A stretch of 64,000 nucleotides of DNA, from IMG/VR virus record IMGVR_UViG_2563366825_000011, positions 1-64,000 of that record. The stretch is one strand, 5' to 3'. The notes below the pieces were generated by a model. That model was not told where the DNA came from and did no database searches. It worked only from the letters and a program-made list of their open reading frames with translations. Numbering within the stretch: position 1 is the first letter of the stretch; each line of letters opens with the position of its first letter. Origin of the DNA: a virus. Lineage: Duplodnaviria > Heunggongvirae > Uroviricota > Caudoviricetes. Positions 62,642-64,000 of the stretch are shown here, in pieces. A program made the translations under genes and the position numbers.

Positions 62642-63904
62642 TTACTTCATCCAGCCTCTGATCTCTTCGGCTGATGCAGCAGCGCTATAATTCTTCGCTT
62701 TTTCCTGTTCGGCTTTTTTATCCCGGAGGTGATTCTGGTACCAAATTTCCAGTTCCTTTTCACGCCCCGGTTCCAGCAAGGCTGGCATATTGGCGGCAGT
62801 CGCTTTGACAAACTCCAGTTTGACCGGATCGCCCTCCGCCCAGGTCTGCCCCTTCTGTAAAAGCTGTTCAAATTTCTGTTGCTGAATTTTCTGCTGATAT
62901 TCCGGTAAACCATGCGCAGCTAAAAATTCATCCCTCGCAGCCTGAGCATTACCGCCGTTCTTGATCGCTTCCGCTGCTACCTGGCTGGCTTCTTTCTGAA
63001 TATCTTTCAGAGAAAGCCCCTCCTGCTTCGGCGTGAAATAACCGAAATTTTTCGAAATTTCCGCGAATTTACTGCGATCCCTGACAAGCTCAACAGCCTT
63101 ATCAACAGGCACCGCCAGCACGGTTTGATCATCCGGATGTGCACTGCCGTATTCTGTTACAGGTTTATGCGCGGTGGAGCCATCGCTGTATGTGAGATCA
63201 AGGCCAATAAGTACGTACCCTTCCTGCTGCGCCGGTACGATACTGCCAATCCTGGCCTCTTTTATCGTCTTTTTCCCGGTTGAATCGGGCATGCCAATAC
63301 GCTGTTGCAGTTCCGGGGCAAACACACCAGAAAGCGCATCAAGACTTTCCGGGGTATTGAGTGAAGCGATCGCCCTGTCCGGCTTGTCATCAAAGATTTT
63401 TTGCAGGTTGTTCACGGCCTGACCCGCTTTCGCTACATAGCCATCATTCGCCATCAGCCTCAGCGGATTACCCTCTGACAACTGGCCGTAAAGACGCATT
63501 GCGGCATCCCGATCGCCAGCATCCACAGCCTTTCCAAGCGCCGCCATCACAGGCTGATCGCGCGCCAGCATATCGTTATACTCAAGCCGTCGCTGGTTGT
63601 ATTTCTGCATCCGGAGTCGCTGCTGCTCCATACCCAGCGACGCATTCCGGTAATTCTGCGCTGCGGCGTGTTCCCTCTCTTTCAGCGCATATTCACGATC
63701 GGCATTTTTGACATTAAGATCATATGTACGCTGATCATTTTCCTTTCGATGCTCAAACTGCGACTGCGCAAATTCAAAATCGCGCTCGTTATTTTTCTGT
63801 TGTTGAGCAAGCTGTGCTTCACGCAGACCAAGCTCCTTACGACGGGTCATGGCCTGGTCAACGGTGCTGAATCCGGCAAGTAACCCCTGTGCAAATCCGC
63901 TCAT
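62642..63904 (-). CDS. Hypothetical 420-aa coiled-coil-rich protein upstream of the giant gene
   Basis: ORF with GGAG RBS, Gln/Glu/Arg-rich predicted coiled coils; no recognisable catalytic motif. Confidence 0.6.
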   Translation of the reverse strand: MSGFAQGLLAGFSTVDQAMTRRKELGLREAQLAQQQKNNERDFEFAQSQFEHRKENDQRTYDLNVKNADREYALKEREHAAAQNYRNASLGMEQQRLRMQKYNQRRLEYNDMLARDQPVMAALGKAVDAGDRDAAMRLYGQLSEGNPLRLMANDGYVAKAGQAVNNLQKIFDDKPDRAIASLNTPESLDALSGVFAPELQQRIGMPDSTGKKTIKEARIGSIVPAQQEGYVLIGLDLTYSDGSTAHKPVTEYGSAHPDDQTVLAVPVDKAVELVRDRSKFAEISKNFGYFTPKQEGLSLKDIQKEASQVAAEAIKNGGNAQAARDEFLAAHGLPEYQQKIQQQKFEQLLQKGQTWAEGDPVKLEFVKATAANMPALLEPGREKELEIWYQNHLRDKKAEQEKAKNYSAAASAEEIRGWMK

Positions 63905-63914
63905 TCACCACTCC

Positions 63915-64000
63915 TTAAAACAACGAGCCAGCAAGACCACCTATGACAGCACCAATAGCCGCACCGGGGAGACCACCAACGGCAGCGCCCATAGCCGCCC
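63915..64000 (-). CDS. Partial CDS (C-terminus only): glycine-zipper membrane-like protein
   Basis: Reverse frame ends ...GAAMGAAVGGLPGAAIGAVIGGLAGSLF-stop just upstream of the 420-aa gene RBS; gene continues beyond the window. Confidence 0.4.
   Translation of the reverse strand, partial: AAMGAAVGGLPGAAIGAVIGGLAGSLF

Follow-up and report, generated by a model that had tools for sequence, protein, structure and literature searches.

What is the function of the co-oriented genes with which the 64,000-nucleotide (nt) stretch analysed here ends? In this window, by which we mean the whole stretch (positions 1 to 64,000 of IMG/VR virus record IMGVR_UViG_2563366825_000011), the minus strand carries the end of a gene for an 83-amino-acid (aa) glycine-zipper protein, a gene for a 420-aa protein and a giant gene for a 2794-aa protein. 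The element is a short-tailed 933W/phi24B-type (Sepvirinae) Escherichia coli prophage, and these genes close its late morphogenetic operon. The first-pass annotation had likened the three products to phage ejection or internal-virion proteins, and this is the best-supported reading in view of the place of the genes at the end of the late operon, the occurrence of orthologues in virions, and an order and sizes like those of the T7 and DEV sets. We give a probability of about 0.6 to the reading that the 83-, 420- and 2794-aa proteins, together with 218- and 148-aa proteins encoded just upstream, are internal virion ejection proteins of this phage. Residence in the virion is well supported; from analogy with other short-tailed phages we infer ejection, a channel and the individual roles. 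The coordinates confirm that the genes share one strand and that the two smaller ones lie upstream of the giant:

63915..64000, minus strand: 3' end of the 83-aa glycine-zipper gene (27 codons, 63918..64000, plus stop), from the open reading frame (ORF)
63915..64166, minus strand: the same 83-aa gene, complete, on E. coli contig KE136651.1
63911..63917, minus strand: overlap of the zipper-gene stop TAA (63915-63917) with the Shine-Dalgarno sequence AAGGAG (63911-63916) of the 420-aa gene
62642..63904, minus strand: 420-aa gene, PHROG 601 (function unknown), orthologue of phi24B gp48 (vb_24B_47)
62569..62596, minus strand: terminator-like hairpin GCCCGAC-CATCGT-GTCGGGC (62596..62577) and T8, with a 7-bp stem of which 6 pairs are G-C, between the 420-aa and giant genes
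54172..62556, minus strand: giant gene, 2794 aa, large polyvalent protein, orthologue of phi24B gp47

Within the window the zipper protein ends in ...AAMGAAVGGLPGAAIGAVIGGLAGSLF*. The first-pass annotation also described the genes as tightly spaced and preceded by Shine-Dalgarno sequences. This holds for the zipper and 420-aa genes, where 10 nt separate stop from start and AAGGAG precedes the ATG by a 6-nt spacer. It does not hold for the 420-aa and giant genes, which are loosely spaced, 85 nt apart, with the hairpin and T8 inside the gap, though a GGAG (62562-62565) stands 5 nt ahead of the giant's ATG. In 65 of 79 related loci 6-12 nt separate the zipper-gene stop from the next ATG or GTG; the full range is 1-12 nt.

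For the sequence upstream of 64000 we used E. coli GCA_000407805.1, whose contig KE136651.1 showed no difference from the window in the 11,359 nt compared. Looking beyond the window, as had been advised, reveals the trio as the 3' half of a six-gene block that encodes 133-, 218-, 148-, 83- and 420-aa proteins and the giant. On the contig, hok/gef is followed by the 133-aa gene, a 93-nt gap with a hairpin and T-run, the 218-aa gene, 2 nt, the 148-aa gene, 9 nt, the 83-aa gene, 10 nt, the 420-aa gene, 85 nt and the giant gene. Upstream of the block are lom, two small genes, and the genes for needle, nozzle, fibres, adaptors, capsid protein, portal and terminase. What precedes the trio is therefore not the lambdoid run of tail-fibre or tail-assembly genes that the first-pass annotation had named as the alternative, but nozzle, needle, lom and hok, and then the 133-, 218- and 148-aa genes; two of these last three (218 and 148 aa) have virion-protein products, as judged from their phi24B orthologues.

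The region matches 186 phage records, nearly all of them short-tailed Shiga toxin (Stx)-converting or related phages (Sepvirinae), the nearest being PhiR12_3 (96%) and ArgO145 (90%). The giant gene is the final gene of the late operon in both of these phages and in one syntenic E. coli chromosome, and in ArgO145 it adjoins attR. Conservation was counted in 80 loci found by scanning viral contigs (mostly ~45-70 kb) with an alignment of the 420-aa subfamily; the ORFs of these distant contigs were then searched with the window's proteins. The 83-aa zipper family was present in 80/80 loci, the 420-, 148- and 218-aa families in 79/80 each, the 133-aa family in 77/80, the nozzle and the needle in 76/80 each and the giant in 69/80. 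The order and spacing of the block are constant across these loci, and it directly follows the nozzle and needle genes. Two profile searches of a large protein database, which returned mostly close relatives, gave the range of taxa; the named hosts include Escherichia, Salmonella, Yersinia, Pectobacterium, Serratia, Brenneria, Chania and Aeromonas; the whole block also occurs in Aeromonas phage phiARM81mr, and the 218-aa family extends to a group of Vibrio phages. An exact match to the 420-aa protein is found on at least 24 E. coli contigs.

The neighbourhood raises the idea that these genes are lysogenic-conversion cargo, that is, morons like lom and hok whose membrane proteins are expressed by the prophage to the benefit of the host. 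In the E. coli element lom and hok/gef do lie directly upstream of the block, and a second terminator-like hairpin with a T-run stands before the 218-aa gene (source contig ~65282-65374, minus strand, beyond the window), so that two such hairpins bracket a tightly coupled set of four genes (218, 148, 83 and 420 aa). We nevertheless regard cargo as highly improbable: lom and hok are missing from most of the 80 loci and fall outside the block that is constant there, no promoter-like site is found ahead of the block within the window, and the products occur in virions. The hairpin before the giant gene is preserved in phi24B through a compensatory change from A-T to G-C, where it falls within the annotated start of the giant coding sequence; that annotated sequence is probably 13 codons too long. 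The hairpin is not universal, appearing in 4 of 26 distinct intergenic sequences when a perfect stem is required. Under Q antitermination, the two hairpins may set the ratio of the giant to the small proteins, or may stabilise the mRNA.

The evidence for virion residence comes from published data on the orthologues in phi24B, a phage other than the prophage studied here. A 2026 bioRxiv preprint on phi24B (10.64898/2026.04.10.717836) combined cryo-electron microscopy and proteomics on the same virion preparation. Virion proteomics was among the checks suggested by the first-pass annotation, and the supplementary mass-spectrometry table of this preprint contains the orthologues of five of the six block products (the giant and the 420-, 83-, 148- and 218-aa proteins), all except the 133-aa protein. 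The spectra, with those of the portal for reference, were as follows:

gp47 (giant): 10,962 spectra in all samples, 746 in the whole-sample run
gp48 (420-aa orthologue): 1,634 in all samples, 179 in the whole-sample run
gp51 (218-aa orthologue): 523 in all samples, 82 in the whole-sample run
gp50 (148-aa orthologue): 129 in all samples, 83 in the whole-sample run
86-aa zipper ORF (83-aa orthologue): 13 in all samples, 6 in the whole-sample run
portal: 2,226 in all samples, 101 in the whole-sample run

In the whole-sample run gp48 thus exceeds the portal (179 versus 101), and its spectra are most numerous in the gel slice directly above that of the major capsid protein, where an intact protein of 47 kDa should run. 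The preprint states that gp47 is absent from the virion model and, because the protein is abundant yet invisible in the maps, proposes it as an encapsidated ejection protein (10.64898/2026.04.10.717836). Its text nowhere mentions gp48, gp50 or gp51, and they are not among the proteins with built models. As the capsid, portal, adaptor, nozzle, fibre and needle densities are all given to other proteins (10.64898/2026.04.10.717836), the giant, gp48, gp50 and gp51 are by elimination the sole candidates for ejection proteins. Scaling spectra per residue to 12 portal copies, a crude measure that misses the true value by as much as five-fold for reference proteins whose copy number is known, gives tens of copies of gp48, gp50 and gp51 and ~20 of the giant, or ~10 MDa of internal protein. 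The T=9 head of phi24B carries 57.7 kb, against ~70-75 kb in N4-like T=9 heads; as a plausibility argument only, ~10 MDa would be of the order of the DNA that is 'missing'. Two other sources touch the same phages: a paper on genes expressed in phi24B lysogens nowhere mentions the block genes, and a 2025 paper on phages of clinical enterohaemorrhagic E. coli gives mass-spectrometry maps only for the head, the fibre and one structural protein.

The same maps bear on another possible location, outside the particle, where the proteins would be tail accessories on the needle tip or nozzle that serve receptor binding or envelope penetration. The genes are indeed downstream of those for nozzle and needle, and phi24B has a small unassigned density at the needle tip. 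This density has been attributed to gp54/gp55, however, and no other unassigned tail density is reported; tens of copies should be visible, and no receptor-binding or fibre-like fold is predicted for the 420-aa protein. An external position therefore seems to us very unlikely.

Database names offer a different account again, under which a bacteriocin or microcin is encoded by the 83-aa gene and a transcription factor by the 420-aa gene, both being non-structural contaminants of the virion preparation. RefSeq calls the former 'bacteriocin', the GenBank note for phi24B calls the latter 'similar to putative transcription initiation factor', the preprint supplement labels gp48 'Transcription factor?', and the preprint treats two proteins, a 'bacteriocin homologue' and a 'transcription regulation factor', as contamination by annotation alone (10.64898/2026.04.10.717836). 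We found no above-threshold model support for the RefSeq name: the matches of the 83-aa protein to Bacteriocin_IIc (18.2 bits, cut-off 27.1, E 0.0025) and to E492 microcin (14.5 bits, cut-off 50, E 0.04) fall below the curated cut-offs and cover the glycine-rich stretch only. No immunity or export gene is noted beside the 83-aa gene, which is fixed between virion genes in every one of the 80 loci. As for the 420-aa protein, no DNA-binding domain was found with Pfam or NCBIfam, and in the whole-sample run it is commoner than the portal. That these labels are correct is accordingly only a slight possibility. The names given to members of the 420-aa family clash in any case ('tape measure', 'CheZ', 'DUF4670', 'PD-(D/E)XK nuclease', 'transcription initiation factor'), and we take none of them as meaningful. 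A tail tape measure, the UniRef name of one homologue, was considered and rejected: no tape-measure Pfam domain is present, and the phage is short-tailed.

What the proteins themselves look like is informative, although searches of the six products against Pfam, NCBIfam and PHROGs found named domains only in the giant, the PHROG families being all of 'unknown function'. The 83-aa protein has a polar N-terminal half and then a 35-residue C-terminal glycine zipper. The zipper claimed by the first-pass annotation is borne out by 17 diverse homologues, in which G67xxxG71xxxG75 is invariant, as are G49 and G55; the match to Pfam Gly-zipper_YMGG (PF13441; 28.1 bits, E 1.6e-6) lies just below the gathering cut-off of 28.9. 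The 218-aa protein likewise carries a glycine-zipper segment at its C-terminus. The 133-aa protein, which is absent from the phi24B virion data, may be an assembly factor.

With phi24B gp48 the 420-aa protein shares 75% identity, and its family is small: a search of 1.84 billion representative proteins returned only 73 clusters, of 400-580 aa. An AlphaFold2 model built from a 35-sequence alignment contains a long helix, a beta domain and C-terminal helices. The features of the gene are:

63869..63898, minus strand: N-terminal GxxxGxxxG motif, G3-F-A-Q-G7-L-L-A-G11-F, the best-conserved part of the family
63518..63862, minus strand: continuous helix predicted by AlphaFold2, residues 15-129 (~115 residues, ~17 nm if straight), with heptad periodicity
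63107..63268, minus strand: small predicted beta domain, residues 213-266, which holds the signature DPxTGKxI...VTYxDGSxAxKPVT

In the family alignments G7 and G11 are invariant and G3 nearly so, and a C-terminal W..DP.K motif is also conserved. The hydrophobic periodicity of the helix at 3.5 residues exceeds that of shuffled sequences (12 of 1000 reach it), and at 3.6 there is no signal. The description of this protein as a coiled coil is thus upheld for its N-terminal third but not for the remainder. No Pfam or NCBIfam family matches it. Fold searches of the PDB with the model returned generic coiled coils only, Foldseek with a single-sequence model found nothing in the PDB below E 0.2, and matches in BFVD, a set of predicted viral structures, were to uncharacterised phage proteins only. 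The profile comparison that had been recommended gave no significant match among PDB sequences, nor did those for the 218-aa, 148-aa and zipper families; the best hit was the glycine-rich stretch of a tape measure (E 0.08).

The giant is 93% identical to phi24B gp47. Its description as a very large multi-domain protein is confirmed by four Pfam domains that all pass their cut-offs, LPD38 (165 bits) and three of the following features:

61285..61347, minus strand: glycine-zipper stretch, aa 404-424, ATIEGAALGAAMGAPFGAVAG, within the N-terminal block aa 130-460
58957..59406, minus strand: LPD5 domain, aa 1051-1200, Pfam 154 bits
58237..58476, minus strand: LPD1 domain, aa 1361-1440, Pfam 82.5 bits
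57040..57309, minus strand: MuF_C domain, aa 1750-1839, Pfam 64 bits

No Pfam family beyond these four was found. With several LPD and effector domains and a position beside packaging and morphogenesis genes, the giant has the properties of the large polyvalent proteins, in which MuF_C is a predicted RNase-type (PBECR) domain (Iyer et al. 2017, PMC5512222). The phi24B preprint names MuF_C a metallopeptidase domain; the metallopeptidase-like HExxH motifs of the giant sit elsewhere, at aa 1284, upstream of LPD1, and at aa 1551. Hydrophobic segments occur at aa 180-207 and 2446-2468. Distant giants conserve only aa 130-460, 1470-1690 and 2180-2426, and the part with LPD5 and LPD1 varies.

Does such a set resemble known ejection machinery? 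In short-tailed phages that infect Gram-negative bacteria, proteins carried inside the virion are ejected and lengthen the tail so that it crosses the envelope; in T7, gp14 (~200 aa) forms an outer-membrane pore, the helical gp15, which has no transmembrane helix, forms a periplasmic tunnel, and the large gp16 occupies the inner membrane and cytoplasm (PMC8954989). Homologues among such proteins are generally paired by size and synteny rather than by sequence, and well-studied short-tailed phages have at least three (PMC8954989). The pattern seen here, a small membrane protein, then a helical one of 420-520 aa and then a giant, equals that of DEV gp73-gp72-gp71 and of T7 gp14-15-16. The T7 set and P22 gp7-gp20-gp16 are likewise consecutive late genes of rising size, whose products are internal virion proteins that provide a pore in the outer membrane, a tunnel through the periplasm and a part in the inner membrane and cytoplasm. 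P22 gp20 has 471 aa. At 420 aa, our protein is just under the size range of gp15-like proteins, 431-982 aa (PMC8954989). Differences from T7 and P22 are the lack of detectable homology, a giant that is 2-4 times the size of gp16 and has no lytic transglycosylase, and a core stack on the portal, which is not reported for phi24B.

The likeness extends to DEV, where gp73 is a small membrane pore protein, gp72 (521 aa) a helical protein that surrounds the portal and then forms a tunnel, and gp71 a protein of 3398 aa (PMC11445570), and to N4, for which an equivalent set was reported in 2026 (PMC13434306). DEV and N4 (gp52-gp51-gp50) share with the present phage an operon whose products are a small membrane protein, a helical protein (~500 aa) that lacks transmembrane helices and a giant (~3400 aa); virions contain the giant although reconstructions do not show it, and the capsid is T=9. 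The middle, 420-aa protein is also the most divergent of its set, as is DEV gp72. There is, in contrast, no similarity of sequence or fold; our giant has LPD5, LPD1, MuF_C and LPD38 and no RNA polymerase domain, two extra virion proteins (218 and 148 aa) are present, the membrane protein is an 83-aa glycine zipper where theirs is of 17.7 kDa, and the gene order runs from small protein to giant. Neither sequence nor structure searches gave a significant match to T7 gp15, P22 gp20, DEV gp72 or the N4 ejection proteins, families that do not recognise one another by sequence either. In its position, order, sizes, predicted helicity and virion residence the block fits the ejection pattern, as an analogue and not a homologue.

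Bcep22-like phages of Burkholderia provide a further parallel. Their operon ends with gp70, which has a C-terminal glycine zipper, gp74 (532 aa), which has a similar G-rich motif at its N-terminus, and the giant gp75; giants of this group have 4500-4600 aa, are called 'DarB-like' and have the LPD38 region in common with ours. In the related arrangement of JC1, gp67, gp68 (510 aa) and the giant gp69 were virion-associated by mass spectrometry, gp67 being encoded just upstream of the last two. The Bcep22 zipper differs in being fused to a larger protein, and genes for a PAPS reductase and an acyltransferase are inserted between. Homology is not established: hhalign of the 420-aa family with gp74 aligned only the N-terminal 27 residues (probability 8%), and BLASTP gave no alignment of the 133-aa protein with the Bcep22 gp69 acyltransferase. 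In Bcep22 (14114-16273) the acyl-CoA N-acyltransferase gene is in the place of the 133-aa gene and the PAPS reductase gene lies between gp70 and gp74; a PAPS-reductase-like gene is also found just beyond the E. coli prophage.

The giant alone has relatives of another kind. Like the large polyvalent proteins (PMC5512222), it has four of their defining domains and is encoded in the late operon of a portal-terminase phage, as predicted for packaged and injected effectors; the 420-aa and zipper proteins, by contrast, are not polyvalent. In PMC5512222 we found no passage on accessory genes beside the giant, and 933W and Stx phages are unnamed there. In the Dar system of P1, too, a giant protein inside the head relies on smaller co-packaged proteins (Hdf, DarA, DdrA, DdrB and Ulx) and is injected with the DNA, although P1 is contractile-tailed and needs no channel of ejection proteins. 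DarB reportedly has methyltransferase and helicase domains. Identification of our giant as P1 DarB was rejected: Pfam found only LPD38, LPD5, LPD1 and MuF_C and neither of those two domains, and the match to PHROG 10089 ('DarB-like') is confined to aa 2355-2682, the LPD38 region.

The P1 precedent suggests that the 420-aa and small proteins might be packaging adaptors that arrange the giant in the procapsid, as Hdf, DarA and DdrA do for DarB, with the giant alone as the conduit. In P1 several accessory proteins are reported to be required for incorporation of DarB, and the phi24B authors name gp47 alone as ejection protein. The co-occurrence with the giant gene is strict, and in one natural fusion (P0142) the N-terminus of the 420-aa family is joined to giant-like segments. 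This fusion, together with a second (P0136) in which the N-terminal part of the zipper protein precedes the 420-aa family, links neighbours of the block and also counts for the ejection-protein reading. The junction between the C-terminus of the 420-aa protein and the N-terminus of the giant is the most variable part between phage lineages: among Stx phages the last ~75 residues of the former and the first ~140 of the latter are much more divergent than the remainder, and identity to phi24B falls in exactly these two adjoining parts (62557-62864 and ~62140-62556). Matches in most phage records span no more than 78-79% of the query. The divergent junction may reflect a contact surface whose two sides co-vary, or no more than a boundary of recombination. 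On the other hand, tens of copies per virion, by the crude count, are many for an adaptor, four of the proteins have glycine-zipper segments of the kind typical of membrane or ring-forming helices, and well-studied short-tailed phages use at least three ejection proteins. We consider a purely adaptor role unlikely, and the two roles are compatible, since DEV gp72 both surrounds the portal and forms a tunnel.

Returning to the ejection proteins, the mechanism that we envisage is as follows. The five proteins would be expressed from the late operon and enclosed in the T=9 head. On release of the needle at infection they would leave through the portal and nozzle ahead of the DNA and assemble a channel across the envelope, beyond the reach of the short tail itself. 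The glycine-zipper segments, which the 83- and 218-aa proteins carry at their C-termini, the 420-aa protein at its N-terminus and the giant at aa 404-424, would be the membrane-inserting, ring-forming elements; by analogy, the counterpart of T7 gp14 may be either the 83-aa or the 218-aa protein. The 420-aa protein would oligomerise through its ~115-residue helix and form or join the part that spans the periplasm, like T7 gp15 or DEV gp72. The giant would then enter like T7 gp16 or the N4 virion RNA polymerase, carrying its metallopeptidase-like and RNase-like domains into the cell.

Several points weigh against this reading. Virion residence comes from the supplementary table of one preprint, and for the 420-aa protein from an orthologue of 75% identity; the 'transcription regulation factor' discarded there may be gp48, which could instead be among the 15 structural proteins counted in the preprint, and the zipper protein has only 13 spectra, on a par with Lom. 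The AlphaFold2 model of the 420-aa protein is of moderate quality (predicted local distance difference test, pLDDT, 71.8; predicted template modelling score, pTM, 0.42) and describes a monomer, and the hydrophobic zipper stretches are short for crossing a membrane fully. A more specific proposal, which we offer tentatively and think rather doubtful, is that the six-gene block encodes a distinct DNA-ejection apparatus in which zipper helices of four proteins co-assemble membrane rings, a 17-nm coiled coil spans the periplasm and an effector of ~2800 aa is threaded through. Such an apparatus would have neither sequence nor fold in common with the T7, P22 and N4 sets and would be shared by Stx phages and phages of Salmonella, Yersinia, Pectobacterium, Serratia and Aeromonas, and probably by Vibrio relatives.

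The surrounding DNA holds other elements. Two identical 1,316-bp insertion sequence (IS) copies of the Mutator/IS256 family lie inverted at 24375-25690 (minus) and 52109-53424 (plus); they look like independent insertions because each seems to have its own 8-bp target duplication, and copy 2 is missing from E. coli chromosomes that are 99.9% identical in other respects. Downstream of the giant gene, 49242-54021 contains a Panacea (SocA-like antitoxin) domain gene (53497-54021, minus), an IS copy, and IbrB-like, PAPS-reductase/DUF3440 (IbrA-like) and Ant antirepressor genes, located between a truncated ynfG and the prophage. These genes are probably not part of the phage, because in two other genomes a prophage that encodes the same 420-aa protein lies beside focA and mlaA without them. 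Positions 1-22000 are part of a separate and unrelated lambda-like long-tailed prophage with a tape measure (1077-3626) and the large terminase gpA (11532-13457), and the genes between these two probably also belong to it. A Rac-like prophage end at 33949-38059 has genes for an 823-aa 3'-5' exonuclease, an excisionase and an integrase beside rspB; in a syntenic genome dicB and ydfD are just upstream of this end. In phiARM81mr, 5876-7787 carries genes for a retron-type reverse transcriptase and a 23S rRNA-intervening-sequence protein among the tail genes, which suggests a diversity-generating retroelement acting on a tail gene.

In summary, the polyvalent-protein class (2017) and the proposal of the giant as an ejection protein (2026 preprint) were already known; we add the six-gene block and its distribution, the case for the 420-aa and zipper proteins as internal virion proteins, the shared glycine-zipper theme and corrections of annotation. 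Short-tailed Stx-converting phages spread Shiga toxin genes, and the only earlier proposal for how their DNA enters the cell names the giant alone; a full candidate set is now defined, consisting of five virion proteins and one conserved non-virion gene. Two proteins probably belong to the particle although database labels had led to their being discarded as contaminants, and the labels 'bacteriocin', 'transcription factor' and 'tape measure' are corrected. As prophages of Enterobacterales and Aeromonadales carry the block in at least eight genera, any result obtained with it would generalise. If the reading is true, this block would represent a fourth way to achieve ejection from a short tail, one that is not homologous to the others.

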